From NCBI GenBank assembly GCA_024694145.1, contig JAILKD010000036.1, positions 7,066 through 71,065 of the forward strand: 64,000 nt of DNA, given 5' to 3'. Origin of the DNA: a bacterium. GTDB taxonomy: Bacteria > Bacillota_I > Bacilli_A > Acholeplasmatales > JAEDCM01. The position numbers and the translations under genes were made by a program. The notes below the pieces were generated by a model, which was given only the letters and a program-made list of their open reading frames with translations, was not told where the DNA came from and searched no databases. Below, in pieces: positions 31,573 through 63,845 of the stretch. How positions within the stretch are numbered: position 1 is the stretch's first letter; each line of letters starts with the position of its first letter.

Positions 31573-31833
31573 AATAGATACCTCCTTTTTTTACTAATAC
31601 CTATATGATTATATCATATAATTTATTTTTTTCCTATATTTTTTTTAATTTGAAATCTATTTTTCATTATTTTTTCAAAATGTTAAAAAAAGGCTAGTTT
31701 ACGCAATTATCTAGACTTTTATATTAAACAATTTAAAAAATATGATAGAATAATTGTTTAATTATAGTTCAAAAGAAAAAACAATTTTAACATAAAATGT
31801 TAAAACATAATAGTAATTTATGCATAAAAATTG

Positions 31834-31839
31834 TATAAT
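31834..31839 (+). promoter_or_regulatory. candidate -10 box for the coiled-coil gene
   Basis: TATAAT lies 25 nt upstream of the ATG at 31864. No convincing -35 element. Confidence 0.35.
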
Positions 31840-31863
31840 AGATATGATTGGAGGTGTATTAAT

Positions 31864-34800
31864 ATGGCTGGTATAAATGACTATATTTCAAAAAACGCAA
31901 ATGAACTAGTTGAAGAATTTTTAACTATCCTAAATGAATTAATTCAAGACCATAACACCTCTACTTCTAAGACAAGAGATAACCTTTTAAACTGTATAGA
32001 AAGCAACAAAAAGAATAACCTTAATTCTAAAAAAAGATGTGATGAAACATTACTTGATTTAGATAATCAAGAAAAAGAATTAAGCCCAAAATATGCAGTT
32101 GAAAATGATAAAATTCAAGAAAAGAATGAAGCGAGAATTGAAGCTAATAATAACTCAATTGCTGAATATAAGAAAATTTATAAAGATGGAATTAATGAGA
32201 TAAATAAAAAATATGATTTAGTTGTTAATGAAGAAAATGATAGATTAGAAAACCTTCAACATTTAAACAGAAAAGAGTTACAACACTATCTACAACAAAT
32301 AGATGCTGAAGAAATAACTCAAAGAAAAGAATTAGAATCAACTATTGAAGAATTGACTAAAAAGATTAGAAAAACACAAGAATCATTAATTATAAATATA
32401 GAAGATTTAAGACACGATTATTTAATAAAATCATCTGGATTTAACGATGATATGCGTAAGACTAGAAATGAATTTATTGATAAAGAAAAAGAACTTAGAG
32501 CAATATCTAGGGAAGAGACTTCTACTCACCATAAGCAAATTGAAGAATTAACAAAAGAAATTTCTAATAAACAAAAAAATATATTAAATACATTTAGTAC
32601 TAATTTTATGGATTTATCAAATTTAGATGATAAAATCTTACTTGAAAATGCTAACGATCAAATTAAATTACTTACTTTACAAGCTAAAAACAAAGAGAAA
32701 AAAAGAATTCTTGAAATTCAAAAGGATAACGATTTATTATTAGAAAAGGAAAAAGATAATACAAAAATCAGAAATCTAAAGATTATTAAGCAAGATATTG
32801 ATAACCAAAATACAACAAGAATTAATAGAGAAAATGTATACTCTTTGATGCGTATTTCTGAATTTGAAAAAGATTCACTTTTAAGTGATGCTATTAAGGA
32901 AAACAAAATTAGTGGTATTTCACTTGATTCAAATGCTAAAATCAATAGATTACACGAAAAACTAAATGATAAGAAAAATGACTTAGATTTTTTCTTAAAA
33001 CGTTTTGATTTGCTTAGAAACTCTAAAAAAAGAACTATTGAATTATATTCACATTTATACGATGTTACTACAACACTAGTATTAGATTTAAATCAATTGG
33101 AACGTGAATATGTTTTAGAACAACAAAAAGCTATTTTAGATAAGAAAATAGAAGATATTAATTATTTAAATAAGGTTAGCGAATATGAATGTAATAAAGA
33201 ATTAGCTATTAATAATTTAAAGTTAGAATTAGAAACTATAGAGTTTGAAATACAAAAAATTAATACTTCATTTGATCATGCTGTATTTAAAACAAGATCA
33301 TCATATAACACTGAAAAAACTCGTATTGAGCACATTTATCAGATGTTTGATTCTAAATATAATACTGAATTAAAAGCTCTAGAAACAGATATTACATTTA
33401 TTTATGCCATAATTGAAAAACTAAAAGAAGAAATAATAAGAACAACTTCTACTGCTATTGATGAGCAAAAGAAGGAAAAAGAATCAACAGATAAAATAAC
33501 TGCATTCTATAAAATGATGACTTCTGAATTTAATTTCATGAAGGAACAAGTAGATAATTATTATAGTAATAAAGATTTAAGATTCACTCCAGATGTAGAT
33601 GAAATAATTAATGACTACATAAAAGCTTCAATTGATAAAAAAAGAGCTTTTGAAAGTGAATTCAAAGAATTAACAAACAAAACACAACTAATTGAAACTG
33701 AAATAAAAGAAATTGAAAATGATATATTTATGCTTGAAGCAAATAGAAAATCATTTATTGAAAAATCAAAGAGAGCATATGATGATAAATATGAACTTAG
33801 AGAATTTGATGAACAAATTGAAGAAAAAGCATTTAGACTTCATATACTTCGTTTACGTTTAAAATCTCAAGCAAAAGAAATGTCAAATCTTGAAAGTGAA
33901 ATGCTTAGAATTGATGAAGGTAAAGATGTATTTGCTAAAAAAGAAAACAAGAGACTATATGAACTTGATTTTGATAATACTTACTTTAATAAGTATGAAG
34001 ACTTACAAGAGACTATTTCAACAATGTTTAATCAGCTATTAACACTTGCTGAATCTTCACTTGAAAAAAATGATTTAAAATCTCTTTATTCATTTAGCTC
34101 AAGTGCCATTAAACATCTTAACAAAGCCACTTCTTCTATTAAATCATTCCATTTTGATACTATTAATGAATATAAAAATGAATTCAAGAAAATCGCAAAG
34201 GTTTGTGCAAACAACATTGAAAAGGAAAAGAAAACATTTGAGATTAATCTTGATATGATTAATAGAGAACGTGATATTGCTATTGATGATGAACAATCAA
34301 AAATAGTAATTGCAAAGAAAAGCTCTAGGGACTTAGAAGTAAAATATAATGTTGATATAATTAACATTAAGCAAAAATCAGATGAAAGACTATCAACAAT
34401 AGATAATGAGCTTAATGATTATAATATCAGATACGGCTTAAATGTTGCTGCACTAGAATCTAATGCAAGTTCTATGAAAAGCTATTATGATGATGCTATA
34501 GCTAAAGAGACAAAAGATAGAGTAGCAACTCTTGCTAATCTTTATAAAGAGCGTAAAATTAATAAGCTTTTATATGAAGATAACTTAGGTAAACTAAGAT
34601 CTAATTATAATATTGAAAAAGAAAAGAATATTATTCAAGCTAAGACTAGAATAAATAACGTATTAAGGCAATATATGCAAAAATGTATGGAATTTGATAT
34701 ACAGTTAAAGAGTCTTGATGATGCACTTAGAAAATCAAGTGCTGAATGTAATAGTGCAATAATTGATTCAGATGTTCAATTAAATGACTTTATCAAGAAA

Positions 34801-34920
34801 CTTGAAAATAATAAAAACTACGATATCAAAAAGGTTAAAGCAGAAACAAATAAGAAGCTTAAACATGATATTAAGCGTTATAAAATTGAAATTGAAAATA
34901 AAAATGAGGCTAATATTTAG
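31864..34920 (+). CDS. 1018-aa coiled-coil protein, function unknown
   Basis: ATG 31864 follows GGAGG (31850-31854); the ORF-track start is an upstream TTG. The sequence is K/E/N/I/L-rich and heptad-like throughout. I saw no Walker motif, signal peptide or TM helix. It has its own terminator. Confidence 0.7.
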   Translation: MAGINDYISKNANELVEEFLTILNELIQDHNTSTSKTRDNLLNCIESNKKNNLNSKKRCDETLLDLDNQEKELSPKYAVENDKIQEKNEARIEANNNSIAEYKKIYKDGINEINKKYDLVVNEENDRLENLQHLNRKELQHYLQQIDAEEITQRKELESTIEELTKKIRKTQESLIINIEDLRHDYLIKSSGFNDDMRKTRNEFIDKEKELRAISREETSTHHKQIEELTKEISNKQKNILNTFSTNFMDLSNLDDKILLENANDQIKLLTLQAKNKEKKRILEIQKDNDLLLEKEKDNTKIRNLKIIKQDIDNQNTTRINRENVYSLMRISEFEKDSLLSDAIKENKISGISLDSNAKINRLHEKLNDKKNDLDFFLKRFDLLRNSKKRTIELYSHLYDVTTTLVLDLNQLEREYVLEQQKAILDKKIEDINYLNKVSEYECNKELAINNLKLELETIEFEIQKINTSFDHAVFKTRSSYNTEKTRIEHIYQMFDSKYNTELKALETDITFIYAIIEKLKEEIIRTTSTAIDEQKKEKESTDKITAFYKMMTSEFNFMKEQVDNYYSNKDLRFTPDVDEIINDYIKASIDKKRAFESEFKELTNKTQLIETEIKEIENDIFMLEANRKSFIEKSKRAYDDKYELREFDEQIEEKAFRLHILRLRLKSQAKEMSNLESEMLRIDEGKDVFAKKENKRLYELDFDNTYFNKYEDLQETISTMFNQLLTLAESSLEKNDLKSLYSFSSSAIKHLNKATSSIKSFHFDTINEYKNEFKKIAKVCANNIEKEKKTFEINLDMINRERDIAIDDEQSKIVIAKKSSRDLEVKYNVDIINIKQKSDERLSTIDNELNDYNIRYGLNVAALESNASSMKSYYDDAIAKETKDRVATLANLYKERKINKLLYEDNLGKLRSNYNIEKEKNIIQAKTRINNVLRQYMQKCMEFDIQLKSLDDALRKSSAECNSAIIDSDVQLNDFIKKLENNKNYDIKKVKAETNKKLKHDIKRYKIEIENKNEANI

Positions 34921-47765: not shown

Positions 47766-47778
47766 ATCGACTTTTTTT
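47751..47778. terminator. bidirectional intrinsic terminator (GT4 gene / LRR lipoprotein gene)
   Basis: A6-GTCGAT-TAA-ATCGAC-T7. The loop is the GT4 stop codon. Confidence 0.8.
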
Positions 47779-49195
47779 AATCATCAATTATGTTTATTGT
47801 ACCTACATAACCAGAATTCCAATACATACTGCAGTATTCTGATTCTATTGTAGAATTATAGATATTAACAAGAGTTATCTTGCTTCCTTTAAGTATAGCT
47901 GATCCTAGTGTAGTAACACTACTTGGAATAGTTATTTCATTTGCATATAAATTTTGAAATGCATCATCATTAATAAGAGTTAAGGTATTCGGTAAAACAA
48001 TTGTTTTACTATCATAATTAGTAAAAATTGTGTCATAGAATACTTTATTTCCGAGACCTTCTATTTTCCCAAAGTCTATATCCTTGAATTTTGAATTAGA
48101 AAAAGCATAACCAGATACATATTCTACATTGTCAGGGATCACAAATTGATTTAATCCTGAATAATCTAAATTAGCAAATGAATATAATCCCAAATTTTTA
48201 ACTGTTGTAGGAATAGTTGCATTTTTACATGCTCTTATTACTGAACTTTCCGCAATATCAATCAAACAATTATTTGACACACTAAAATTTACATTTAAAC
48301 CAGTAATAGAAAATCCTGTTAAATATTCCATTTTTTCTTGATATCCGAAAGCAGTTAATGATTGAGGAATGATAATTCTATTAATCTTTGTATTATTAAA
48401 TGCGTTATTTCCTACTTCTTTTAATCCATCGTTTAATGTTATTTCAGTTAAAGATGTATTATTTGAAAAAGCATTTGATAACAAATATTTTATTGAATTT
48501 GGTAATACTACTTTTGTAAAGCCACATCCATCAAAAGCAAAATGTCCAATTGAACTTACTTCACCATATGTGACTGACTTTAATCTTGGACAATTTTGAA
48601 ATGCTCTCTCAGAAATTGCAGTTAAACTAGATGGTAATACTACTTCTTCAAGATTTATCATACCAGAAAACATTGCTTTATCCATTTCAGTAAAATCTTT
48701 TGATAATCTTAATTTAGTGATATTTGATTCAGATAAGCAACATGTAGACATTTCATCTTCAACATTTGATAAAACAATCAAATTATGTACACCATGAATT
48801 CCATCATTATAAGTTCTTGTAATCATAGGAGATGTACTTGTACCATTATATCCTCTAATTATATATGTTTGTGCATTTTCATTATAATCAATTACAAAAC
48901 CATCAGTTATTTTTTCCGCTCCACAAACACTACATACATCATTTACATAAGTATGTGGTTTTAATTCAACATCAGCAAACTCAACTTTTCCACATGCACA
49001 AGATCTCTTTTTTGTACCAACTTCTGTGCATGTTGAATCAACTAATAATTCCCAATCACCAAATTCATGAACATGATCTTCTTTAGTAGTAATAGTTGTT
49101 CTTTCTGTATTAGTTGTGTTGTTCTTTTTGCCACATCCAAAAGATAATAACCCTAAAACAGCTAAAAAGAATGATAATATAACATTTTTTCTCAT
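47777..49195 (-). CDS. BspA-type leucine-rich-repeat surface lipoprotein
   Basis: Signal peptide ending LSFGCGKK, then a Cys/His-rich segment (HVHEFGDW...TCTEVGTKKRSCACG...VCSVCG). This is followed by repeated ~23-aa units of the form IP.sV..I...AF..c..L..v. Confidence 0.75.
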   Translation of the reverse strand: MRKNVILSFFLAVLGLLSFGCGKKNNTTNTERTTITTKEDHVHEFGDWELLVDSTCTEVGTKKRSCACGKVEFADVELKPHTYVNDVCSVCGAEKITDGFVIDYNENAQTYIIRGYNGTSTSPMITRTYNDGIHGVHNLIVLSNVEDEMSTCCLSESNITKLRLSKDFTEMDKAMFSGMINLEEVVLPSSLTAISERAFQNCPRLKSVTYGEVSSIGHFAFDGCGFTKVVLPNSIKYLLSNAFSNNTSLTEITLNDGLKEVGNNAFNNTKINRIIIPQSLTAFGYQEKMEYLTGFSITGLNVNFSVSNNCLIDIAESSVIRACKNATIPTTVKNLGLYSFANLDYSGLNQFVIPDNVEYVSGYAFSNSKFKDIDFGKIEGLGNKVFYDTIFTNYDSKTIVLPNTLTLINDDAFQNLYANEITIPSSVTTLGSAILKGSKITLVNIYNSTIESEYCSMYWNSGYVGTINIIDD

Positions 49196-49222
49196 ATAAT
49201 CACATCCTTATTAATATTATAC

Positions 49223-49253
49223 AAAAAAAATAAAAGCCTAACAAGTAGGCTTT
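49223..49253 (-). terminator. intrinsic terminator after the 555-aa LRR gene
   Basis: Minus strand reads AAAGCCTA-CTTGT-TAGGCTTT followed by TATTTTTTTT. Confidence 0.75.
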
Positions 49254-50919
49254 AATTGTGTTGTATTTTATTATCTTTGTAATAACTCATCAATCCACAT
49301 TCACTATTATTATTCATTAATGTTTCTAGTGAACTAGATGAGCCAGCATAAATAATTGTTGTCATCTTATTACATCCATAAAATGCACTTCTTCCAATTG
49401 TTTTAAGTGTTGCAGGCAAAGATAAATAATTTATAGCACCGCAATTATAAAATGCCTCAGGTCCGATATATTCTACTGGAGCATTTTTAAGTTCTACACT
49501 TGATAAACTTACACAATCGAAAAATGCACTTTCACCTATTTCTTTTACCGAACTCAAAGCATCAAAAGATTCTAATGCTCTACACCCAAAGAATGCTTTA
49601 ATTCCAATTCTTTTAATACTATAATCAGCATTTTCTTCAATTAATACATTTTTTAACGAAACACAATTCATAAATGTATAATCATCAATAACACTTAATG
49701 ATAATGGTTGTGTTAAATCGGCAATTTCAAGATTAATTGCATCTGCAAATGCATATGCATTAATTTTTGCTACTTCAGGTGGACATACAAATGACTTCTC
49801 TTCTTTAAGAGCCGGGTACACCAATAATTTTTTATAATCACTTGTGTATAAAACACCAAGTCTTACTTTGTAAGAAGTATTATCATCTGACACTTGAATA
49901 GTCTTTAAGTTTCTACAAAAAACAAATGCATCATCAGCAATTTCTGTTGTTTTACTTGGAATTACTATTTTATTTAATCCAGAATTATAAAATGCTCTTG
50001 AAGCTATTTTATTAACATTTGATAACTCTACAGTTTGTAATGCAGCACATAACTCAAATGCTGATTCAGGAATTTCTTCAACTGAAGTATTATTTAATGT
50101 AAGTTTTTTTAATTTTTCACAGTAGTAAAACGACTCATTACCAATACTATTTAAAGTGTTTGGAAAACTAATGTTTTCTAAATTTCTACAATTATTAAAT
50201 GCACCTTCTCCTATTTTTTCTAAACTAGTTTTAGAGAAATCTAAAAATTGTATTTTTTTATCAAATGCAAAGCACAAATCTTTTACTTCTTTTAAAGTAT
50301 TAGGCAACGTAATCTTTGACAAACTACTTAAATTATACAATGCTTTTTCATTGAAAGTAATAAAGCTTGTATCAGTAAAATCAAGCGTTGTTAGACTATT
50401 GCATTCTTCAAATACATTACTTCCTAATACTTTAGCAGTTTTAGGAAACTTTATATCTGTAAGGCTACTGCACTTTTTAAACATTGAATCACTTATTTCT
50501 TCAATTGCTAAATCTGATAAATCCATTTTTACTAGACTGCTGCATTCTGAAAATGCTTCTTTTCCAATTGAAGTAATAGTTTTGCAATAATTCATTTCAA
50601 TTAATTCACTACATTTATGAAACGCATCATCCTCAATTGTAGTTAATTTAGATTTTGACATATCTACTTTTTTTATTCTGTATTGATCATAAAAGGCATT
50701 TGTTTTAATTTTTTTAACAACATGTTTATCTATAGAATAAGGAATTATTATTTCTGTTTGATTTTTATAATTATCATTAAAGCCAGTGATTATAGCATCA
50801 CTTCCATCAAGTTCAAACGAATAAATTGTATTTTTGCTACTTGCATATACATCTTTATTCTTTCCACATCCAACTAAAAAAAACGGAATTAATAATAACG
50901 GAACAATTATTTTTTTCAT
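49252..50919 (-). CDS. BspA-type leucine-rich-repeat surface lipoprotein
   Basis: Lipobox FLVGCGKN. The body consists of repeats such as ITSIGKEAFSECSSLVKMDL and AKVLGSNVFEECNSLTTLDF. Confidence 0.8.
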   Translation of the reverse strand: MKKIIVPLLLIPFFLVGCGKNKDVYASSKNTIYSFELDGSDAIITGFNDNYKNQTEIIIPYSIDKHVVKKIKTNAFYDQYRIKKVDMSKSKLTTIEDDAFHKCSELIEMNYCKTITSIGKEAFSECSSLVKMDLSDLAIEEISDSMFKKCSSLTDIKFPKTAKVLGSNVFEECNSLTTLDFTDTSFITFNEKALYNLSSLSKITLPNTLKEVKDLCFAFDKKIQFLDFSKTSLEKIGEGAFNNCRNLENISFPNTLNSIGNESFYYCEKLKKLTLNNTSVEEIPESAFELCAALQTVELSNVNKIASRAFYNSGLNKIVIPSKTTEIADDAFVFCRNLKTIQVSDDNTSYKVRLGVLYTSDYKKLLVYPALKEEKSFVCPPEVAKINAYAFADAINLEIADLTQPLSLSVIDDYTFMNCVSLKNVLIEENADYSIKRIGIKAFFGCRALESFDALSSVKEIGESAFFDCVSLSSVELKNAPVEYIGPEAFYNCGAINYLSLPATLKTIGRSAFYGCNKMTTIIYAGSSSSLETLMNNNSECGLMSYYKDNKIQHN

Positions 50920-50973
50920 TATATATCACGCTCCTAAATTAATTTTATCATATTTTGTGTTTTAAATATATAC

Positions 50974-51002
50974 AAAAAAAGCACTCATACTTTGATGAGT
51001 GC
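50974..51002 (-). terminator. intrinsic terminator after the 1541-aa LRR gene
   Basis: Minus strand reads GCACTCAT-CAAAGT-ATGAGTGC followed by TTTTTTTG. Confidence 0.8.
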
Positions 51003-51016
51003 TTATTATTTACATG

Positions 51017-54000
51017 TTATGCAGCTACAATAGTTGCACCATTATCTTTAGCAACCTTAAATCCATAATTGCTTTCATAATTATCGACATTAGGTACTTT
51101 TAATGTAAATTTAGTTGGATCGCTAAATGTTTCAACATCAATACTAGGTGGTGTAACACTATTAAATGTTATTGTACCAGCAGTTTGAACTTGGAACACA
51201 CGTTTACCAATGTTATTTACATTTTCTGGAACTACAAAGCTTGTTAGATTATTACATCCATTAAATGTATCATCATTAATTGCATTACAATTTGTACTCC
51301 AATTAACTGTAGTAAGCGCTGAACATGTATTGAATGCACCTACACCAACATATGTAACACTATCAGGAATAGTTGCTGTAGTAATAGATTTACATTCTTT
51401 AAATGCATTGCCTAAAATTTGTTCAAGTACTGTTGTCTTTCCTTCTACTTGTAAGAAGTTTAAATTAGCAATCTTAGTTCCTTCAAATGCACTTTCGCCA
51501 ATAGTTCTAATTTTTTCTACATTAATTGATACTTCTGCAAGCTCTGTACATTTTGCGAAGAAGTTATTACTAATACCAGTAATATCTAGAGCAGATAGGT
51601 TAGCAGATACTAAGCTTTCAGATTCAGAGAAAGCATCTGGTCCTAAATTAATTACTTTTGCACCTAATGTTAATGAAGTAATACCAGATTTATAGAATGC
51701 TTTTTGGCCAATTGATACATTATTTGTACCAGTACCAAGAGCTAATTCTATTGATAAAGCACCACATTCTTCAAATGCTTCAGCTCCAATTGATAAAATA
51801 TTACCAAATGCAAAGCTTCCAATTCCACTCTTGTAGAATGCTCTACTACCAATTGCATTAATTGTAGTATTATCAGTCATATCAACTGTTGTTAAACTAG
51901 CGCATTCTTCAAACATTGAATTACTAATTAAAGTAACCTTTAATGCTTTTAAATTAGCACTTGATAATGTTGAACCTAAGAATGTGCCTTCACCGATTTC
52001 AGTAACTTTTGCTCCAAGAGCAACATTTGTTATGCCACTATATTGGAATGCGCCTTCACCTATAATTAGACCAACACCATCATTTTCTGTACCGATGTTA
52101 ATTACATCAGTAACACCAGTAAATGGTCTTGGATATTTGAAAGCATCAGTGCTATCTTTTTCGCCACTATTTGCAAATGCAAATGATCCTATTTTGTTAA
52201 CGCTCTTTGGAACAATTCCTTTATATGGAGTATTAAAGAATGCTTCATCACCAATAATTTTAATGTTTCCATTATTAGCTGTTTCCCAATCAACATTTTC
52301 TAACATATAGCAACTCTTGAATGTTCCAGCTGGGATTTCTTGAATTTTTTCAGGAATAACTAAATTATTAATTGATACAGCACCTTCAAATGCACTTTCA
52401 CCAAATGTTTGAAGTGATGTAGGTAAAACTAAATTAGTTAAACATCCACAATTTAAGAATGCGTTAGATCTAATTTCTCTAATAGTGTTTGGTAGATTAA
52501 TTGTTGTTAAAGCCATACAATTTGCAAATCCACCATTAGCAATATACTCAATCTTATTATTTGTAGCAAATTCTACATTCTTCAATGTAATACATCCACT
52601 AAATGCATTATCTCCCATAGCTTCAACATTCTTAGAAATTGTGAAGTTCTTTAAGTTTGTACAACCTGAGAATGCATCTTCACCGATAAATACTAATCTA
52701 GATGAGTTTATATCAATATTAACTTCACTTAATGTTAAGATATTGTTAAATGCTTTTTTATGAATTCTTTCAACTGTATTAGGAATAGTAATACTTACTA
52801 AAATTGTATTTTGGAATGTTCCGTTAGGAATTTCTTTCAAATTAAGTTTATCATCTTCAACACTTGGTTCAAATGTAACTTCATGTAATGATTTACAACC
52901 AGCAAATATAGATTCTCCAAGAATTATACCATTTGATGGAATAATAACATTTGTAATACCTGATCCGGCAAATGCATTAGAACCAATTTCTTTTACGTTA
53001 GCCATACCAATAAATTCTGTTAAGCTTTCGCAGCCTTCAAATGCATTCATACCAATCTTTGTAATAACACCATGTTCTGTATCCTCTAATTGAACAGTAC
53101 TAATTGCTGTAAAGCCTTTAAACATATTAGCAGCAAGTTCAATTTCAGTACCCTTTAACACAATCTTAGATAATGTATTTTTTAATGTTCCAACAGTATC
53201 ACCAAATATTTGTTCTAAGCTACTTGTACCAAAAACTTTGACTTCATCTATTTTTGTACATCCTTCAAGAACTGCCTTACCAAGTTTTTCATTAGCACCT
53301 AAATCATTTACGAACTCAAATGATGTGATTGCTTGGCAGCCTGAGAATGCTTTATCACCCATTGAAGTTAAATTTTCATTTGTTTTATTTATTTTAATTA
53401 GTAAGCATCCACTAAACGCTTCAGCTCCTAAAGTTTTTAATTCAGCAGGTAGTGCATTTAATTCAAGATTAACGCATCCTTTAAATGCTGCATCACCAAT
53501 AGTTGTAATGCTATCATTTAATGAATTGATCACTAAATTAGAGCATCCATCAAATGCATGTGCACCAATTGATGTAATATTTTCGTTAATTGTAAATGTA
53601 GAAATTGACGAATCGTTTTGGAATAATCCTTCGCTTATTAATACAACATTTTCAGGAAGAGCATCAATAACTAATTTACCACAATCTGCAAAAGCATATT
53701 TACCAGCTTTAGTTAAACCATTAGGTAATGCTAATGTTTCAATTCCACCGCATCCTTTGAATGCTTCTTCACCAATTTCAGTTACTGTTTCAGGAATAAT
53801 TATTTCACTTACTAATATACATCCGCTAAATGCCTTTCCTTCAATTATTTCAGTTCCAGCTAAAACTTTTATTGAATTAATTGTTTGGGCAACAGTTTCT
53901 CTTGATTCTCCGAATAATGAATCAAGACCATATTCTCCTCTTGTTTCAAGAGTAGTTACATTTGTATCTCCAACAAATGCATTTGGTTCTACAATTGTTC

Positions 54001-55642
54001 CTGAAGAGAATTTGATTGATGTAATATTAATACAATTAGTAAATGCGAATTGTTTAACAACAGTAACAACATTTGCACCTGTTATAATATTTACTTCATC
54101 TATTTCTGAGCATCCTTCAAATGCATTTTCTCCTATTGTTTCAATGTTTGCAGAGAATGTTGGAGTAGGAATTGCTGTATTTCTAAATGCATTAGCACCA
54201 ATAAATATAATATTGTCTAATGATAAAGTGCTTACTTTAACACATCCATCAAATCCACCTTCTCTTACTTTTGTAACTGTTGATGGTAATGTAACTGCCT
54301 CAAGGTTAATACAATTTTTAAATGTATTCTTAGAAATTTCAGTTAAGCCTTCATTTAATGTTATTTCAGTTACTCCTGTACATTCTTCAAATGCACTTTC
54401 ACCCATTGCTTTAACAGTATTAGCCACATCAAGTGTAACTAGATTTGCACATCCTTTATAGGCATTAGCTGCAATTTTATCGCCTGTTACATGAAGTTCT
54501 ACTAGTGACTTTCTAACTTGTGGAGCGTAACTAGTAAATATAGTTGCAATTGATAAACTTCCATTTGCAGTTAATTTCTCAATTTTTTCAAGTGGAATAA
54601 GAACATATTCAATTGGTTCTCCTTCTTTGTAATCTCTATCAACAATTTGTCTTTCATATTGTGTGAAAGCATTATTTCCGATTACAATATCAGATCCAGC
54701 CTTTATATTTAATTCTGTCAAACCTGCATTTACGAATGCTTCATCACCAACTGCTGTTAAACTTTCTGGCAATGTAACAGTTGTAGTTTTTTGAGTATTA
54801 TAGAAAGCTTTTGCTCCGATTTCTTTTATACCGTTATTAAACTTAATAGAACCTAGTTCTGTACAACCTCTAAATGCATTAGCACCAATCTTAGATAATT
54901 TTGTATTGCTAGAAAAATCTAATGCAGTGATTCCAACGCATCCCGAGAATGCCGATTGATCTATACTTGTAAGATTTGTAGCACTATCAAATGTTATAGT
55001 TGATAAACTACTACACTTTTCAAAAGCACTATCTGAAATAGTAACTAGTGTTTCAGGTAAATTGATACCTGTTATTTTATTACAATTGTAGAAGGCAAAT
55101 GGTCCAATAATTTCAAGATTTGATTCACTTGCTATTGTTACATTAGTTAATGTTTCTACATTTTGGAATGCTTCATATGAAATTGACTTTACACTTGCAG
55201 GAATTGTAATTGATGAAATTTTTGTTCCTAAAAATGCTTTAGATGGAATAGTTGTGATTTGTGGATTAGATCCAAATTCTACTGTTTCAAGATTTGAACA
55301 ATTCATAAATCCATTTCCATTGAAATAAACTAAGTTATCTGAAAAAACAACTTTTGTTAAATCTTTATCATCAGCATATGTAAATGAAACTCTTGTAACC
55401 TTGGCATTATTTTCACCAATAGTATTTGGAATAGTTAATGTAGCTCCTTGTTTTTCTATTTCAACAATTTCAGCCTCACCATTAAATTCCTTATATTTCA
55501 TCTTAAGGTTCTTGTCATATTTTATTTCATCATCAACAGGTGTTGGTTCAGTTTTTTGACTCTTTCCACAACCAGCAAAAATAAAAGCTGCTGAAGCTAT
55601 GGATAAAACTGAAAGTACCTTTAACATCATTTTCTTTTTCAT
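51017..55642 (-). CDS. giant BspA-type leucine-rich-repeat surface lipoprotein (1541 aa)
   Basis: Lipobox IFAGCGKS. Dozens of tandem ~23-25-aa LRR_5-type units run through the whole protein (e.g. VKSISYEAFQNVETLTNVTI, LTSIDQSAFSGCVGITALDF). Confidence 0.85.
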   Translation of the reverse strand: MKKKMMLKVLSVLSIASAAFIFAGCGKSQKTEPTPVDDEIKYDKNLKMKYKEFNGEAEIVEIEKQGATLTIPNTIGENNAKVTRVSFTYADDKDLTKVVFSDNLVYFNGNGFMNCSNLETVEFGSNPQITTIPSKAFLGTKISSITIPASVKSISYEAFQNVETLTNVTIASESNLEIIGPFAFYNCNKITGINLPETLVTISDSAFEKCSSLSTITFDSATNLTSIDQSAFSGCVGITALDFSSNTKLSKIGANAFRGCTELGSIKFNNGIKEIGAKAFYNTQKTTTVTLPESLTAVGDEAFVNAGLTELNIKAGSDIVIGNNAFTQYERQIVDRDYKEGEPIEYVLIPLEKIEKLTANGSLSIATIFTSYAPQVRKSLVELHVTGDKIAANAYKGCANLVTLDVANTVKAMGESAFEECTGVTEITLNEGLTEISKNTFKNCINLEAVTLPSTVTKVREGGFDGCVKVSTLSLDNIIFIGANAFRNTAIPTPTFSANIETIGENAFEGCSEIDEVNIITGANVVTVVKQFAFTNCINITSIKFSSGTIVEPNAFVGDTNVTTLETRGEYGLDSLFGESRETVAQTINSIKVLAGTEIIEGKAFSGCILVSEIIIPETVTEIGEEAFKGCGGIETLALPNGLTKAGKYAFADCGKLVIDALPENVVLISEGLFQNDSSISTFTINENITSIGAHAFDGCSNLVINSLNDSITTIGDAAFKGCVNLELNALPAELKTLGAEAFSGCLLIKINKTNENLTSMGDKAFSGCQAITSFEFVNDLGANEKLGKAVLEGCTKIDEVKVFGTSSLEQIFGDTVGTLKNTLSKIVLKGTEIELAANMFKGFTAISTVQLEDTEHGVITKIGMNAFEGCESLTEFIGMANVKEIGSNAFAGSGITNVIIPSNGIILGESIFAGCKSLHEVTFEPSVEDDKLNLKEIPNGTFQNTILVSITIPNTVERIHKKAFNNILTLSEVNIDINSSRLVFIGEDAFSGCTNLKNFTISKNVEAMGDNAFSGCITLKNVEFATNNKIEYIANGGFANCMALTTINLPNTIREIRSNAFLNCGCLTNLVLPTSLQTFGESAFEGAVSINNLVIPEKIQEIPAGTFKSCYMLENVDWETANNGNIKIIGDEAFFNTPYKGIVPKSVNKIGSFAFANSGEKDSTDAFKYPRPFTGVTDVINIGTENDGVGLIIGEGAFQYSGITNVALGAKVTEIGEGTFLGSTLSSANLKALKVTLISNSMFEECASLTTVDMTDNTTINAIGSRAFYKSGIGSFAFGNILSIGAEAFEECGALSIELALGTGTNNVSIGQKAFYKSGITSLTLGAKVINLGPDAFSESESLVSANLSALDITGISNNFFAKCTELAEVSINVEKIRTIGESAFEGTKIANLNFLQVEGKTTVLEQILGNAFKECKSITTATIPDSVTYVGVGAFNTCSALTTVNWSTNCNAINDDTFNGCNNLTSFVVPENVNNIGKRVFQVQTAGTITFNSVTPPSIDVETFSDPTKFTLKVPNVDNYESNYGFKVAKDNGATIVAA

Positions 55643-55809: not shown

Positions 55810-55830
55810 AAAAAAAGGCTCAAAAGAGCC
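55810..55830 (-). terminator. intrinsic terminator after the Big_2/VanZ gene
   Basis: Minus strand reads GGCTC-TTTT-GAGCC followed by TTTTTTTG. Confidence 0.65.
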
Positions 55831-57580: not shown

Positions 57581-59299
57581 TTATAATCCTTGACGTAAAG
57601 CTTGAAGAGCTCTGAATAATAATACTCTATAATCTTCAGCAGTCTTAATGTATTCTTTTTGATTATCTAATCTAAATAGAATCCATTCAGTAATAGGATT
57701 TTGATTTTCTTGTAATTTAGCTCTAATTTCAGCTTCTGGTTTAGTAAGCTTCTCTGGTGGTAAATTTTTGAAGAATTCATTTGCAGCTTTCTTTAATTCT
57801 TCGAAGTTAGTCTTTTGAACTGATGAACCTTTACCAATTTGGAAAGTATCAGCAAATGATTGACCATCTTCATGAACTTCTTTTGCAATAACTTCAATCT
57901 TACCAGAGTTATCTACTCTTAAAGTTACATCTACTGGAACTTTATCAACTGAATCATGGAAGTTTTGAAGTTCAATCTTACCTAAAATTTGGTTTTCAGG
58001 AGATTCAACATTTAAATCTTTACCTTGAACTACATAAGCAGTAACTGCTTTTTGTCCCTTACCAGCTGTATAGAATCTTTCTACTACTTCATAAGGAATA
58101 GGTGTATTTTCAAGCATCATGTATTGAACGAATCCACCAGCAACTGTAATTCCAAGTGGGTTAGTTAAAATTTCGTTTAAGAATGATTCTTTCTTATTAC
58201 CCATAATTGAAGCTTGGATAGCAGCACCACGTGCAACGATTAAATCTGGATCACTATCAGAAATTTCTACACCTGGGAATGCACTTCTAATCATGCTTCC
58301 AACTAGTGGAATACGAGTAGAACCACCAACTAAGATAATTCTTTGGATTTCGCGTCCTCCAACAACTTTCTTAGCCATTTCAACTGTTTGGTTAACAAGT
58401 GAACCAATCATATTTTCAAATTGAGTCTTTGTTAATGAATATTCAAGAATAATTCTTTGTCCTTGAATACGAATCATATCTGTACCTTTAACTTCATCTT
58501 GTTTAGATAAAGCAATTTTGATTTTTTCAGAAATACCATAACTTCTCTTAATGAATTCTTTTTTGAAATCTTCTTTTCCTTCATATTTTCTACCTTCATC
58601 AGTAGATACATATGAATTATATAAGAATTCAGAAATCTTTTCATCGAAGTTCTTACCACCGATAACTGAACCATCAGTTCTAACAGCTTGATAGAATCTA
58701 ACTCCATCAACGTTTTCACATTCTAGTAAAGTAGCATCAAATGTTCCACCACCAAGGTCAAATGCAAGTACGTTTGATGCATCTTCTACATCTTCACCAT
58801 ATGCAAGTGTTGCACTTGTTGGTTCGTTGATTAAACGAATTTCATGAGTTGGATTAAATCCTGCATCTCTAGCAGCTTGTTCAGTTGAACGTCTTTCGTT
58901 ATCTTTGAAATAAGCTGGAACAGTGATAACTAAATCTTCAACTTCATTATCTGGATATAATTCATCTAGTCCGTCTTTGATATATTTTAATACCTTAGCA
59001 GAGAATTGTTCTGGGTTTAATTTAACTCCGTTATATTCTTCTGTATATGCATCACCTTTATCCATGTTGATTTTCATATGTTTCCAAGCATCCATGTATA
59101 AATCTGCATTGTTCTTAACTTTTTCTCCAACAAGGAATTTATCTGCAGCTTTGTCATAGTAAACTACTGAAGGGTAAATACCTGACATACTTCCGTGTAA
59201 ATATTGAAGAACTGGTTGATTTGTTACATCAGAATAAATATAGCATTCAGAGTTTGTAGTTCCTAAGTCAATACCTACTGTTAATTTTATATTACTCAT
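57581..59299 (-). CDS. divergent Hsp70-family ATPase (non-DnaK paralogue type, short lid)
   Basis: GIDLGTTNS, ITVPAYF, NEPTSATLAYG, DLGGGTFD and ILVGGSTRIP actin-fold/Hsp70 motifs, with a beta-sandwich-like region (LGITVAGG...). At 572 aa, sequence outside the motifs differs strongly from housekeeping DnaK. Confidence 0.85.
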   Translation of the reverse strand: MSNIKLTVGIDLGTTNSECYIYSDVTNQPVLQYLHGSMSGIYPSVVYYDKAADKFLVGEKVKNNADLYMDAWKHMKINMDKGDAYTEEYNGVKLNPEQFSAKVLKYIKDGLDELYPDNEVEDLVITVPAYFKDNERRSTEQAARDAGFNPTHEIRLINEPTSATLAYGEDVEDASNVLAFDLGGGTFDATLLECENVDGVRFYQAVRTDGSVIGGKNFDEKISEFLYNSYVSTDEGRKYEGKEDFKKEFIKRSYGISEKIKIALSKQDEVKGTDMIRIQGQRIILEYSLTKTQFENMIGSLVNQTVEMAKKVVGGREIQRIILVGGSTRIPLVGSMIRSAFPGVEISDSDPDLIVARGAAIQASIMGNKKESFLNEILTNPLGITVAGGFVQYMMLENTPIPYEVVERFYTAGKGQKAVTAYVVQGKDLNVESPENQILGKIELQNFHDSVDKVPVDVTLRVDNSGKIEVIAKEVHEDGQSFADTFQIGKGSSVQKTNFEELKKAANEFFKNLPPEKLTKPEAEIRAKLQENQNPITEWILFRLDNQKEYIKTAEDYRVLLFRALQALRQGL

Positions 59300-59418: not shown

Positions 59419-61107
59419 TTATCTATTGCTTCTCTTTTTCTTTTGGCCTTCTTGTGGAATATCTTGCAATGGGTCATTTCCTAAATCAAAAATTGGTGGA
59501 TTGTAGATATCATCAGGATTAGATCCTCTTAGACGTTCTTGCCTTGCACGTTCTTCTTTAGCTTTTTCTTCTCTAGCACGAGCCATTTCTTCCCATGCAC
59601 TCTTTACAGATTCAGCCTTTTTATCTTCTTTCTTCTTACCACCAAATCCAAATAAACCTCTACGTTCTTTTTCAGGTTCTTTTTGTTGTGGTTTAGCTTC
59701 TTGAATAGGTGTTTCTTCAACTTCTTCAGTTTCTTCTACAGCCTCTTCTTCAGCAGGTGTTTCTTCAACCTTAGGTTCTTCTTTTGGTTCTTCTTTCTTC
59801 TTTTGTAACATTTCAGCCTGACGTTTAGCTTCTTCAGCAGCCTTAGCTTTTTCAGCTAATTGTGCTTCTGTTGCTTGGCTTTCTGCTTCAAGTTCAGCAA
59901 GTAATCTTGCTTCTTCCTCTTCAGCTTGTCTAGCAGCTTCTTCAGCAGCTTTTCTAGCTTCTTCAGCACGTAGTCTAGCAGCTTCTCTAATTTCAGCTAA
60001 TTTCTTTTGCTTTTCAGCAATTTCAGCTTCTTTTGCTTGACGTTCTGCTTCTAGACGTTCTCTTTCAGCAGCAGCTTCAGCTTCAAGACGCTCAGCTTCT
60101 GCCTTAGCTTCAGCAATACGGCGTTCTTCTTCTTCCTTACGACGACGTTCTTCTTCTTCACGAGCCTTTCTTTCGGCTTCTTGTCTAGCTAATTCAGCTA
60201 GACGAGCTTCTTCTTTTAGGCGCTCTTCTTCAGCAATTCTAGCCTCTTCTTTAGCAATTGCTTCTTCAGCAATTCTTTCAAGTTCTATCTTCTTATCTTC
60301 AGCTTCTGCAGCTTCAATATATAACTTATCAGCTTCACGTCTAGCTTCATCAGCCTTACGCATAGCTTCATTCTTAGCCTCTTCAGCTCTATGAGCTTTT
60401 TCACTTAATTTACGAGCAATCTTTCTTGCTTCAGCAGCTTCATCAACTTCTTTTAAGTTGTACTTGTTATCGCCACTATCATTCATCATTTGTAACATTT
60501 GTTCACCAAGTGCTGAATCTTCAGATACAGATCCACCATCTTCACGGTTACCTAAAACATCATTTAATGCCTTCATAGCAGCCATAGCTTTATCTTTATT
60601 AGATAAACCTTCAACATCTAATGCTTCATCATATTTATAAGTAATAACTTGTGGTTGAATTAAAATTACTCTTGTAATCTTATTTCTAAATCCAACTCTA
60701 TCAATGTGAACTACCTTCTTATCGAGGTTCTTATCACCTGTAGGAATAACATCTGTTACTTCCATTTCATCAATATCATAGTTTTCAAGTACATTTGGTA
60801 CCATTACTTCAATATTTTGTAATTGAAGTGTAGTTTTAAACTTTGATAAAGTGTAAGACATTTGTCTACTATCAGACATATCATCTTTAAAATCAACATA
60901 TCCAGCATCAACTCTTGTGAATATTTCAGCTAAAGCCTTCATGAATTCACCTAAAGACTTATCTGTTTGTTTTTTTAGCTTGTCTTCTGATCTTTTTAGT
61001 TCATTTTTAACTTCTTGAATTTCTGCATTTAATCTTTTAATATATATATCTTTAGTACGCATCAATTCTTGTTGCTTTTCTATTTCTTTCTTTAAATCCT
61101 CTGCCAT
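59419..61107 (-). CDS. GrpE-like nucleotide-exchange-factor domain fused to a long E/R/K/A-rich helix and an acidic/basic tail
   Basis: aa 1-160 comprise an N-terminal coiled coil, LGEFMKALAEIFTRV (GrpE LLPvlDnlERAl position), ENYDIDEMEV (GrpE FDPn.HeA position) and VGFRNKITRVILIQPQVITY (GrpE GY....rvlRpA.V.V position). aa ~221-437 are almost pure E/A/R/K. Confidence 0.55.
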   Translation of the reverse strand: MAEDLKKEIEKQQELMRTKDIYIKRLNAEIQEVKNELKRSEDKLKKQTDKSLGEFMKALAEIFTRVDAGYVDFKDDMSDSRQMSYTLSKFKTTLQLQNIEVMVPNVLENYDIDEMEVTDVIPTGDKNLDKKVVHIDRVGFRNKITRVILIQPQVITYKYDEALDVEGLSNKDKAMAAMKALNDVLGNREDGGSVSEDSALGEQMLQMMNDSGDNKYNLKEVDEAAEARKIARKLSEKAHRAEEAKNEAMRKADEARREADKLYIEAAEAEDKKIELERIAEEAIAKEEARIAEEERLKEEARLAELARQEAERKAREEEERRRKEEEERRIAEAKAEAERLEAEAAAERERLEAERQAKEAEIAEKQKKLAEIREAARLRAEEARKAAEEAARQAEEEEARLLAELEAESQATEAQLAEKAKAAEEAKRQAEMLQKKKEEPKEEPKVEETPAEEEAVEETEEVEETPIQEAKPQQKEPEKERRGLFGFGGKKKEDKKAESVKSAWEEMARAREEKAKEERARQERLRGSNPDDIYNPPIFDLGNDPLQDIPQEGQKKKRSNR

Positions 61108-61113
61108 AATTTA

Positions 61114-63807
61114 TTAGGCCTCCTTTTCAAGTAATAGTTTAGCATAAGCATCATTAATTAAGGCAACCTTAGATGAGTCGCCACCTCTATCTCTATGATG
61201 AGCAAGGATTTGACGTTTGTATGCTTTCTTAATTTCTGCGATTGTAGCTTGTCTTGTAACGCCAAGTAATTTGTAGTAGATATCATTTTCATCATGACTT
61301 GATGCGAATGCTCTATCTTCTTCAGCAAGTAATCTATATGCATATCTATTTGGTGTTTCTTCATATAATTCTTCTAGCTTCTTAATGTATTTTTTCTTTA
61401 AATCAGTTACATATTCAGCTAATTTATCAGTTCTTGGTGGTTCTTCTCTATTAATTAAAGTTAAAATGTTTTGACAAGAATATACACCAATCATTGCACG
61501 TTCAATATAAACCATGTTAGTACTTAACATTAAGTCGTTTTGTTGATATTCAGTCTTATAAAGTGAAGTAACATAACTTGAGCAGTTACATGCAATGTAA
61601 TTCTTTAATGAAACATAAATTGAATCAATCTTTCTAGTATTTAATAATTCAATAGCATTAACTAAATCTGATTCGAAAATATCAACTATTTTCTTATCAT
61701 AATATGCTTCATATTTCTTTAAAATAGATAAGTATCTTAAAGCTTTTTCTGTGTTTTCTCTGTTTTTAATTAATCCTAAAATCTTTTCATATTTACTAGC
61801 AATAACTTTTAAATCAAATTGTTTAGCAAATTTATTAGCACCTTGTTCTTCATAAATTTGACTAAATTCAATAGCTTCATCAGCATTTGATTTACACATA
61901 TCTACAACATCTGGGTTAGATGATGTTCTTGCCATATATTCCCAGTAATCTGCTTGAGAATTTAAGATTTGTGACATAATTTGTGGATCAAGGTTAGCCT
62001 TGATTTGATATTCATGATATTTAACTTGATAATCATTTTCAAGTATAGTAGCCTTAGCTAATCTGTTAAATATTTCTTGACTAGTTTTATGTGCAATATC
62101 AAGTGGAGTTTCACCTTCACTATTTACATCTAGAGCTTTAGATTCAACTCTCTTGAAGAAATAATCAAAACACTTAACTGCATTGTTTCTAGCACAGATA
62201 TGTAAGATATTATTTTTCTTACTATCTACACCATCAAATTTATAACCTCTAACAGCACTCTTCATAACTTGGTCAATGTCATCATTAGCTACATAAACGC
62301 TATATAAGTAAATTGGGTAAGTATGAAGTCTCTTCTTGATTTCATCAATTTGTAATTGAACATTAAGTTCAGAAATAAATGATCTAACATCAACTTTTTC
62401 ATCGATGTATGCTTGTACTCTACGAGGAACTGAATCAATATTTAAAGATTCATTTTCAAATACTTCTTTTCTAATAACGTCTTTTGATTCTTCAACTATT
62501 CTATTATAGTCATCAGCTTGTTGACGAAGTCTCTTTAACATTTGGAAAATTCTTGTAATCTTAACGTTGATTTCATCAATATCACAAGTGTTAAGTAATG
62601 TTTCGAAGAAATCTACTTCAGCAACAGTATCACTCTTACGTAAAATGTTAACACGTTCATCAAGTCTAGATAATACTAAATTAACTCTATCAATATTTTC
62701 GTTAATTTTTCTTTCGTATTCATCCTTCTTATATTTAAGTTCATTAACTGAATCTAAGTGTTCATTTTTAGTAGTAAATACTAGAGGAACCTTAGTATCT
62801 TGTGTCATATCGACATCAAGGTTTTTAGCAACCTTTTGCATTTTTGAAGGAATAGATGCTTGATAATCTTCATAAGCCTTAACTGATTGATCCATAACCT
62901 TCTTAGTATATTCATCATATTTTGCATATAAACCAACAAACATACCCTTATCAGCAAATTGACGTTCACCTTCAAAACTATTATGACTTGCACTTTCTTT
63001 TAATCTAGATAAAATTTCAAGATTATGATAAAGTGATTGGTCTTCTTCGTATAAGTATAAAATTTTTGCTTGATATTTTTTGTTAATCTTATCAAGTTCG
63101 TTATATAATTTTTCAAGTTCTGGATAGTTATTAACGATATCATCAATCTTTAGTTCATCACTTTCTTGTAATTGACCAAGTTCATAGTCTTTGTAATTTT
63201 CTAAGATTGATTGAAGTGTTCTAGACACATAACCTTCATAACTTGAATAAGTATAGTTCATAGCTTTTGTGAAGTCTTTGTATTTAACATCGTAAACACT
63301 TAATTCTCTTGTTTCAAAGAATTCATCATATAGCGATTGAGCAAATCCAAATTGACCACTTTGGTTAGATGGCTTTTGAAGTGTGAATTTTGCTTGAAGT
63401 TGATCTAAGCAACGTTTGTATTCATCTAGTGAATCACCAACGCTCTTAGTATAGCTATATAATTCTTCACTTAATTCAAATTTTTTGTATGCACCTTTAC
63501 AAGATAGCACACCAATTGTAGAGATTAATGATAAAACTCCAAAAATTCCCGCAATTGCTAATACTGCAATTCCAAGTGCAAAAACTGGACCCATTAACAC
63601 AACACCAATTGCTGCTAGAGCAATAGCAATGATCCAATAAATCACAAGGCATGCAATGTATTGCTTTTGATTTTTGTTATAATGCCAATCACTAAATGCC
63701 CCAGTTCCATTTGCGTAATGCTCAGGACCATAGAATGCATCTTGTGTAGCGCCTTTTGACTTTAATGCGTATTTTGGAAATAAAACAAATAATTTTGCCA
63801 CATACAT
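61114..63807 (-). CDS. membrane-anchored protein with ankyrin repeats and a C-terminal J domain (HRD variant)
   Basis: Two adjacent TM helices (aa ~51-104). ANK-like repeats follow (NNILHICARNNAVKCFDYF...NSEGETPLDIAHK, aa ~525-585). The last 56 aa, DIYYKLLGVTRQATIAEIKKAYKRQILAHHRDRGGD...INDAYAKLL, form a J domain with HRD in place of HPD. Start is ambiguous (GTG 63810, ATG 63807 or GTG 63801 after GAGGTG). Confidence 0.75.
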   Translation of the reverse strand: MYVAKLFVLFPKYALKSKGATQDAFYGPEHYANGTGAFSDWHYNKNQKQYIACLVIYWIIAIALAAIGVVLMGPVFALGIAVLAIAGIFGVLSLISTIGVLSCKGAYKKFELSEELYSYTKSVGDSLDEYKRCLDQLQAKFTLQKPSNQSGQFGFAQSLYDEFFETRELSVYDVKYKDFTKAMNYTYSSYEGYVSRTLQSILENYKDYELGQLQESDELKIDDIVNNYPELEKLYNELDKINKKYQAKILYLYEEDQSLYHNLEILSRLKESASHNSFEGERQFADKGMFVGLYAKYDEYTKKVMDQSVKAYEDYQASIPSKMQKVAKNLDVDMTQDTKVPLVFTTKNEHLDSVNELKYKKDEYERKINENIDRVNLVLSRLDERVNILRKSDTVAEVDFFETLLNTCDIDEINVKITRIFQMLKRLRQQADDYNRIVEESKDVIRKEVFENESLNIDSVPRRVQAYIDEKVDVRSFISELNVQLQIDEIKKRLHTYPIYLYSVYVANDDIDQVMKSAVRGYKFDGVDSKKNNILHICARNNAVKCFDYFFKRVESKALDVNSEGETPLDIAHKTSQEIFNRLAKATILENDYQVKYHEYQIKANLDPQIMSQILNSQADYWEYMARTSSNPDVVDMCKSNADEAIEFSQIYEEQGANKFAKQFDLKVIASKYEKILGLIKNRENTEKALRYLSILKKYEAYYDKKIVDIFESDLVNAIELLNTRKIDSIYVSLKNYIACNCSSYVTSLYKTEYQQNDLMLSTNMVYIERAMIGVYSCQNILTLINREEPPRTDKLAEYVTDLKKKYIKKLEELYEETPNRYAYRLLAEEDRAFASSHDENDIYYKLLGVTRQATIAEIKKAYKRQILAHHRDRGGDSSKVALINDAYAKLLLEKEA

Positions 63808-63845
63808 CACCTCAATTTAATACTGTCATTTCGTCTCTAATATAT

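Follow-up and report, generated by a model that had tools for sequence, protein, structure and literature searches.

A 64,000-nucleotide stretch of DNA (the window; contig JAILKD010000036.1) from a yak rumen metagenome-assembled genome (MAG) of Acholeplasmatales carries a chaperone module composed of three genes. The first codes for a J-domain protein with a putative membrane anchor (the J-protein), the second is an adjacent and closely coupled gene for a GrpE-like protein, and the third codes for a divergent Hsp70 paralog. The J domain lacks the His-Pro-Asp (HPD) tripeptide: His and Asp are retained, and Pro is swapped for Arg or Lys throughout the clade. The alignments indicate that this change is clearly maintained by selection, and the best reading of them is that the J domain has co-evolved with its own Hsp70. 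We consider the chances somewhat better than even that the J-protein is tethered to the membrane as the targeting subunit of an Hsp70 machine that is self-contained and specific to the lineage, and in which the J domain is functional and has been retuned to a private Hsp70. In the literature we searched, neither this Hsp70 family nor an H-R/K-D J domain is described, although the survey of bacterial J-proteins by Barriot et al. 2020 lay outside that search. Within that literature, the complete module of J-protein, GrpE-like protein and Hsp70, with its H-[R/K]-D triad under selection, is previously undescribed.

The J domain and its H-[R/K]-D triad

The C-terminus of the J-protein had been proposed to form a J domain when the window was read from its sequence alone, and profile searches agree. 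The Pfam DnaJ model (PF00226) scores 34.8 bits over amino acids (aa) 845-892, which is above its gathering cut-off of 27.8. When the protein was compared with solved structures by phmmer, 36 J domains were matched at E <=0.01, including those of DnaJ (1BQZ and 5NRO_B). In these alignments YYKLLGVTRQATIAEIKKAYKRQILAHHRDRG pairs residue for residue with Escherichia coli DnaJ, which sets ...AHHRDRG above ...KYHPDRN. AlphaFold2 predicts an ordinary J-domain hairpin (helices 854-867 and 876-894), and local superposition of the model on predicted J domains gives 0.7-1.4 A across 46-58 columns. The His-Arg-Asp (HRD) codons CAT AGA GAT were verified at the exact position that the sequence-only reading had assigned to them (Table 1).

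That reading had also classed the protein as a type III (class C) J-protein, and this assignment stands. The J domain is C-terminal, DnaJ and Ank_2 are the only Pfam domains detected, and the G/F region, zinc-finger and beta-sandwich of classes A and B are absent. Moreover, the DnaJ equivalog models match over the J domain alone (28 bits against a cut-off of 377). Current nomenclature also uses ‘type IV’ for J domains whose HPD is altered non-conservatively (PMC13254874), and by sequence the Pro to Arg change in this recognizable J domain fits that definition as well.

Substitutions within HPD are rare. Among 154 J-domain matches (from the 149 best representative hits), 144 carry HPD, and the sole H[K/R]D in that set belongs to a distant relative, P0013. 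This rarity would speak for a strain-specific lesion in a decaying, pseudogene-like gene, and whether HRD is such a lesion or a conserved trait was a question raised by the sequence-only reading. The relatives answer it. A large-database search at E <=0.001 recovered 12 relatives of the J-protein, 11 of them full length (60-98 % identity). The triad is HRD in 10 of these 11 and HKD in the most distant one, P0011 (61 % identical). A metagenome scan yielded six close relatives and one unrelated J domain, whereas a genome scan yielded two loci; all six additional metagenome loci code for HRD, with AGA or AGG as the Arg codon. When 1.84 billion representatives were searched exhaustively with HMMER, only six proteins reached E <=1e-10. 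One of them, P0013 (866 aa, 22-25 % identity), shares the identical architecture and reads ...EHHKDRGGD..., that is, HKD. Every member of the J-protein family that keeps the triad has HRD or HKD.

The reading frame is intact at 895-898 aa, and the J domain is its most conserved region (87-100 % identity among close homologs). In P0013 the J domain is 55 % identical whereas all other regions are at 13-24 %. The Arg/Lys codon appears as AGA, AGG, AAA or AAG, and the flanking codons vary synonymously (CAT/CAC, GAT/GAC and AGA/CGT). This pattern of shared triads, a best-conserved J domain and synonymous variation excludes decay. The homolog comparison thus refutes a strain-specific lesion, to which we assign a negligible probability, and HRD is instead a lineage-wide feature.

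The Hsp70 paralog and the GrpE-like protein

The Hsp70 paralog is presumed to be the partner of the J domain. It reaches only 261.5 bits with one canonical DnaK model (TIGR02350, cut-off 822.55) and 269.2 bits with another (NF001413, cut-off 648), and it is far under the NCBIfam cut-off for HscA. Sequence identity is 32 % to E. coli DnaK and 28 % to HscC. In a database search, members of its own family (16 clusters, 567-581 aa) scored 354-1211 bits and DnaKs no more than 225 bits. The gap between 354 and 225 bits marks the paralog as a separate family.

Bacterial DnaK paralogs are mostly uncharacterized, and a general proposal for prokaryotic examples is that they act as Hsp110-like helpers (PMC13580251). 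Applied here, the paralog would boost nucleotide exchange or disaggregation by the housekeeping DnaK, and the J-protein would merely localize it. The altered linker (FLNEIL in place of VLLLDV) and the short lid are in keeping with such a role. However, the beta subdomain of the substrate-binding domain (SBD-beta) is complete and has DnaK-like pocket residues (I401, A429, Q433 and T437). The allosteric residue R167 is retained, as are D8, T11-N13, E171, D194, T199, D201, N170, T173, Q378 and P419. In every lineage, moreover, a dedicated J-protein and a dedicated GrpE-like gene accompany the Hsp70, an arrangement that marks an autonomous Hsp70 cycle. We consider a helper function quite improbable.

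The structure of the DnaJ-DnaK complex (5NRO) shows which contacts are at stake. In DnaJ, H33 is bonded to the carbonyl of L391 in the linker, P34 is packed against P419, D35 forms bonds with R167 and Q378, and K48 pairs with D477, while R22, K26 and R27 of helix II face DnaK residues E206, D211 and E217 (PMC8215388, PMC7289447). The J domain in the window keeps His, Asp, K22, K26 and R27, and the adjacent Hsp70 keeps E206, D211, R167, Q378, P419 and the linker. Because these residues are kept on both sides, the HRD J domain probably still stimulates ATP hydrolysis by its Hsp70. The K48-D477 salt bridge is missing from the pair, with Ala at position 48 of the J domain and Arg or Lys at position 477 of the Hsp70.

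A scan for charge gains specific to the Hsp70 partners of H[R/K]D proteins returned eight acidic and six basic positions. Position 421, which is two residues from P419, is Glu in the six aligned H[R/K]D partners and in the Hsp70 of locus L001. It is Ser, Thr or Lys in all 13 Hsp70s that are not paired with H[R/K]D. We hypothesize that the Arg or Lys of the triad could contact E421.

The related modules can be arranged as a series. A 65 % identical relative has its genes in the same order as the window (J, GrpE-like, Hsp70), and this order is also conserved in L001, L004 and the distant L005, L006, L007 and L009 (L003 ends within the second gene of the module). The window clade and that of P0013 make up a large form with H[R/K]D. 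Modules of the P0013 clade have two zinc ribbons on the GrpE-like core, and the HtpG (Hsp90) gene lies directly 3' of the Hsp70 paralog in this HKD clade (L005:12277-14175; also L006, L007 and L009).

A short form (L008, from a ‘Bacillales bacterium’ MAG, L010 and L017) consists of a GrpE-like core (158-179 aa), Hsp70 (568-570 aa), a Trypsin_2 protease and then one or two J-proteins. These J-proteins (335-438 aa) have an N-terminal hydrophobic hairpin, the same helical domain ahead of the J domain, and canonical HPDRGG. The serine protease of these modules (227-228 aa) is encoded between Hsp70 and the J gene (L008:7311-7997, L010:9710-10396 and L017:5305-5988), and its start and stop codons overlap or abut those of its neighbors. 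Its placement hints that chaperone and protease may be coupled in quality control.

Finally, a large form without the triad has J-like domains that read ...II-DLRIKGAG... (L011), ...ELRNSGAS... (L014) or ...KNKNQTDN... (P0016). The middle gene codes for 397 aa in L014 and 453 aa in L016, and for a fusion of the GrpE-like core in L011.

The triad-less lineages bear on whether the HRD domain is catalytically active. A ‘type IV’ or pseudo-J domain would bind its cognate Hsp70 without stimulating ATP hydrolysis and would serve as a passive membrane tether, a recruiter or a brake, much like Pam16 beside Pam18. In sister lineages the entire triad is gone, yet the ankyrin module, a J-like domain and the gene order all persist, which shows that a catalytic HPD is dispensable for the family. 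The absent K48-D477 salt bridge also points in this direction, as does the fact that HPE is the sole triad change known to be tolerated in canonical systems (PMC13254874). However, His and Asp, whose loss kills stimulation, are invariant alongside Arg or Lys. R167 and Q378 are retained in the Hsp70 partners of both HPD and H[R/K]D J-proteins, whereas residues 167/378 are A/H in the triad-less system L011 and T/H in L014 and P0174-P0176. This decay, seen in two of the three true triad-loss lineages, makes the H[R/K]D state look unlike the dead state. Nor does the module include a second, HPD-bearing J gene that could supply the activity. Because His, Asp and their Hsp70 partners are kept here and have decayed in most lineages that truly lost the triad, we favor a functional J domain and regard a pseudo-J domain as an unlikely alternative, albeit one to be taken seriously.

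The middle gene of the module is tightly arranged with the J gene, which contains its ribosome-binding site (AAGGAGG). A 119-nt spacer separates it from the Hsp70 gene. When the GrpE-like core was searched alone, the Pfam GrpE model (PF01025, cut-off 25.8) scored 26.5 bits, aligning profile positions 14-152 of 165; the whole protein scored 21.3 bits. GrpE is also the top Pfam match for the corresponding proteins of L004 (18.7 bits) and L017 (the 158-aa protein; 22.3 bits, profile 84-164).

The accessories fused to the core differ by lineage. In L005 (9174-10196) these are the two zinc ribbons, which are N-terminal, and in L011 (6797-7999) there is a C-terminal hydrophobic segment that appears to be multi-pass when the alignment is judged by eye. 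In the window, aa ~215-470 (59698-60465, minus strand) form a run of ~250 residues dominated by Glu, Arg, Lys and Ala (EEERRRKEEEERR...) that resembles an ER/K single alpha-helix spacer. This run is followed by a conserved RGLFGFGGKKKEDKK motif and then by the C-terminus KKKRSNR. An exchange factor with a rigid spacer and a basic tail would be unusual.

J-protein architecture, proposed mechanism and genomic setting

The AlphaFold2 model of the J-protein, built from a 14-sequence alignment, is all-alpha with a mean predicted local distance difference test (pLDDT) value of 74. From N- to C-terminus, a membrane hairpin is followed by long helices (~390 aa), the ankyrin module, another helical domain and finally the J domain. 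The sequence-only reading had called an N-terminal two-helix membrane hairpin with lysine-rich flanks, and hydropathy, charge counts and the model all point the same way. Kyte-Doolittle hydropathy exceeds 1.6 (19-residue windows; every start within aa 49-89) with means up to 2.8, and aa 51-104 include no charged residue and a G-P at 73-74. Each flank has six Lys or Arg residues, and the 4-residue turn between the predicted helices (45-69 and 74-102 in the 895-aa numbering) has no positive charge. Two membrane helices place both termini on the same side, and because the J domain, the GrpE-like protein and Hsp70 work only in the cytoplasm, that side should be the cytoplasm. Thus, the J-protein is probably hairpin-anchored in the cytoplasmic membrane with its N- and C-terminus both inside. 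The segment that precedes the hairpin (aa 1-42 in the same numbering; 63676-63801, minus strand) contains G-x-F-S-x-W-H-x-N-K, which is invariant across close homologs.

No Pfam match and no significant Foldseek fold match was obtained for the ~390-aa helical region, which the model suggests could be a stalk or a helical bundle. The ankyrin repeats that had been noticed by eye are borne out by an above-threshold Ank_2 match (28.2 bits, cut-off 27.3; aa 509-586) and by an ankyrin fold in the model (pLDDT 84-92). Foldseek matches to the J-protein model are all local. Those to the ankyrin module superimpose at 1.5-1.9 A over 83-88 columns with TMt up to 0.85 (glutaminase ANK and DARPins). The ANK consensus residues are unchanged even in relatives at 18-23 % identity, and they are invariant across large-form modules with or without the triad. 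The second helical domain is common to the short hairpin J-proteins with HPD, where P0026, P0032 and P0073 align to aa 668-892 or 706-892.

These features suggest how the machine might operate. The hairpin would hold the J-protein in the cytoplasmic membrane, the long helices would act as a stalk, and the ankyrin module together with the conserved second helical domain could bind a client or an adaptor, such that the whole forms a membrane-fixed scaffold that presents the client to Hsp70. The C-terminal J domain would dock on its cognate Hsp70 at the interface of the nucleotide-binding domain (NBD), linker and SBD-beta. The Pro to Arg/Lys change would represent a fixed, selected retuning of the SBD-beta contact at the site where the Hsp70 gained Glu421. 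Pairing of Arg or Lys with E421 would make the J-protein and Hsp70 mutually specific and, we conjecture, insulated from the housekeeping DnaK system. The GrpE-like protein would then reset the Hsp70 through nucleotide exchange to close the cycle. The most likely field of action is the handling of membrane proteins or surface proteins. Beyond the three genes, no neighbor shared across the modules points to a client.

A more far-reaching version holds that the H-[R/K]-D J domain is fully active but orthogonal, with the proline replaced by a salt bridge to SBD-beta (E421). The series from HPD to H[R/K]D to no triad with R167 loss would then record stepwise rewiring followed by loss of J control, and the module, complete with its own GrpE, would work as a chaperone motor tethered to the membrane of a bacterium that has no wall. 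We put this version forward tentatively, as possible but doubtful.

Several observations weigh against a retuned, functional machine. In canonical systems, all tested HPD substitutions other than HPE abolish stimulation (PMC13254874). The catalytic K70 of the Hsp70 is not directly aligned; an invariant Lys lies two columns upstream, and only by inference is it taken to be K70. The triad-less P0016 system (L016) keeps R167, such that loss of the triad correlates with loss of R167 in two of three cases, and a perfect correlation had to be dropped for this reason. D479 was likewise dropped as an acid gain specific to the H[R/K]D clade because the Hsp70 of L008, an HPD partner, also has D479. The co-variation at 421 and 477 reflects a single phylogenetic split, which makes it one event rather than a statistic. 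With so few relatives found (2 genome loci and 6 in metagenomes), it is without statistical footing. The insulation from the housekeeping DnaK system is itself a conjecture.

The middle gene is a further weak point, since its homology to GrpE is marginal. This homology is backed by two independent, collinear Pfam top matches, but not by searches of the PDB, hhalign or structure prediction. Neither phmmer nor a profile search with the GrpE-like protein recovered a GrpE in the PDB, and hhalign gave a probability of <1 % against E. coli GrpE. The AlphaFold2 model of the protein, for which the homolog search found only two near-identical fragments, has a mean pLDDT of 49.5 and is confident at the N-terminal helix only.

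The coordinates of the module and its parts are collected in Table 1. The window has a G+C content of ~29 %, and its minus strand carries nearly all genes. The intact open reading frame (ORF) of the J-protein spans 61114..63810 on this strand and would code for 898 aa if counted from the first GTG. The upstream sequence is GAGGTG-ATGTAT-GTG, where the GTG at 63801 lies 6 bases past the GAGGTG ribosome-binding site. Gene calls for the full-length close homologs are 888-905 aa, and all have a MAK start (MAKLF...) that matches GTG 63801. The shared MAK start and the ribosome-binding site make GTG 63801 the most likely start, and hence a protein of 895 aa.

Table 1. Positions in the window of the chaperone module, its protein features and the flanking elements.
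Feature	Position	Strand	Evidence or remark
J-protein coding sequence (membrane-anchored, putative)	61114..63801	-	895 aa from GTG 63801; alternative in-frame starts ATG 63807 and GTG 63810
Two back-to-back transmembrane helices, 4-residue turn (predicted)	63496..63669	-	Kyte-Doolittle and AlphaFold2
Long alpha-helices (30-45 residues), ~390 aa	62326..63489	-	AlphaFold2, pLDDT mostly 60-80; helices run to residue 492
Ankyrin-repeat module, ~2.5-3 repeats	62053..62286	-	Pfam Ank_2 (PF12796), AlphaFold2 and Foldseek
Second helical domain ahead of J domain	61297..61986	-	AlphaFold2 pLDDT 70-92; model residues 606-835
C-terminal J domain, helices I-III, no helix IV	61117..61284	-	Pfam DnaJ, structure alignments and AlphaFold2
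CAT AGA GAT, His-Arg-Asp replacing His-Pro-Asp	61189..61197	-	Sequence; aligned to DnaJ H33-P34-D35
GrpE-like protein coding sequence, 562 aa	59419..61107	-	Starts 6 nt after J-protein stop
GrpE-like core, aa 1-165	60613..61107	-	Sole part common to the middle genes of all related modules
Hsp70 paralog coding sequence, 572 aa (NBD, linker, SBD-beta, short lid)	57581..59299	-	Pfam HSP70, 261 bits
Big_2 (three copies) and VanZ-like membrane protein, 553 aa	55846..57507	-	Pfam and NCBIfam
First terminator-like hairpin and T-run downstream of J gene	55817..55830	-	Consensus scan

The gene for the Big_2/VanZ protein occupies the same place in L001 and L004 and is absent from the distant modules. 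A consensus scan found no terminator-like site on the minus strand between 63810 and 55830, and this gene is probably the last of the J-protein transcript, in the window clade only. Two other possibilities for the module were considered and rejected. A role in anti-phage defense is not indicated, because the four proteins gave zero PADLOC matches (E <=0.1) and the genes lie in conserved housekeeping synteny. Heat-shock control by HrcA through the controlling inverted repeat of chaperone expression (CIRCE) was set aside as well, since no CIRCE match with <=3 mismatches occurs anywhere in the window.

Directly downstream of the chaperone module, positions 47777-55642 (minus strand) encode an array of surface proteins, namely three consecutive BspA-type LRR_5 (leucine-rich repeat, LRR) proteins of 1541, 555 and 472 aa. 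The largest has a lipoprotein-like N-terminus (...FAGC). Between two of the LRR genes, at 50979-51004, there is a perfect 10-bp inverted repeat (AAGCACTCAT-N6-ATGAGTGCTT). Its arms hold the CIRCE core GCACTC/GAGTGC with a spacing of N10 and not N9, and T-runs occur on both sides. This element is most likely a bidirectional terminator. Elsewhere in the window, a 1029-aa ORF with a TTG start (31831-34920, plus strand) runs opposite to nearly all other genes. G+C falls to its lowest value in this segment (0.236), GC and AT skew are both inverted, and a Pfam search at E <=1e-5 matches nothing in the ORF. This segment may be foreign DNA.

Comparison with known systems

Acholeplasmatales would be expected to have small genomes and so a single Hsp70 system. 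The paralog described here adds a fourth type of bacterial Hsp70 to DnaK, HscA and HscC, and it comes with its own membrane J-protein and GrpE-like factor. J domains are defined by the HPD tripeptide, which is also their most conserved feature, and the variant in the window sits beside its presumed cognate Hsp70. A 2026 review lists HPE as the only tolerated HPD replacement known and calls it ‘enigmatic’ whether other deviations are accidents or were selected (PMC13254874). The HPD, H[R/K]D and triad-less relatives make up a small, tractable set of natural J/Hsp70 pairs that could be used to address the role of the proline, how J/Hsp70 specificity is encoded, and how an Hsp70 escapes from J control. 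The practical consequence is modest, and this J-protein family is very rare.

The nearest analog in logic is E. coli HscC with DjlB and DjlC. There too, a short (550-580 aa) specialized Hsp70 is encoded beside dedicated, membrane-anchored class C J-proteins, and DjlB and DjlC have a deviant triad (HPE) and do not function with DnaK (PMC8215388, PMC13254874). However, the Hsp70 in the window is closer to DnaK than to HscC (32 % vs 28 %), has no L1,2 insertion, and retains the D211 loop, which is deleted in HscC. Outside the J domain, the J-protein shares nothing with DjlC (hhalign probability 0.5 %). The variant residue is the middle one of the triad (Pro to Arg/Lys), whereas in DjlB and DjlC it is the last (Asp to Glu). 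HscC is also without an exchange factor, whereas the module in the window has a GrpE-like gene. Membership in the HscC/DjlC group was ruled out by pairwise and profile comparison, by the HscC-specific indels and by the presence of this putative exchange-factor gene.

DjlA resembles the J-protein in being of class C, anchored in the membrane near its N-terminus and with a cytoplasmic J domain at its C-terminus. It differs in having one anchor helix and a canonical HPD and in working with DnaK, and it has neither an ankyrin module nor a dedicated Hsp70 or nucleotide-exchange factor. The NCBIfam DjlA model scores 18.7 bits on the J-protein against a cut-off of 162, and it matches the J domain only.

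The import motor of mitochondria offers a conceptual parallel. It combines a membrane-anchored J-protein (Pam18/Tim14 with Pam16/Tim16), the dedicated use of an Hsp70 at the membrane (mitochondrial Hsp70, mtHsp70) and an exchange factor of the GrpE family (Mge1), and Pam16/Tim16 is a J-like partner with a degenerate triad. However, the mitochondrial motor belongs to eukaryotes and pulls chains in from the trans side of a translocon, whereas the parts encoded in the window would lie on the cytoplasmic (cis) side. The two have no sequence relationship beyond their domain families.

The same three protein families, with the GrpE-like protein as a putative member of its family, are also found in the canonical grpE-dnaK-dnaJ operon of Firmicutes, and the short-form relatives keep the order GrpE-like, Hsp70, (protease), J. 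In contrast to that operon, all three proteins in the window are far under the equivalog cut-offs, the J-protein is class C and apparently membrane-bound, the window has no CIRCE, and the J gene comes first in the large-form modules.

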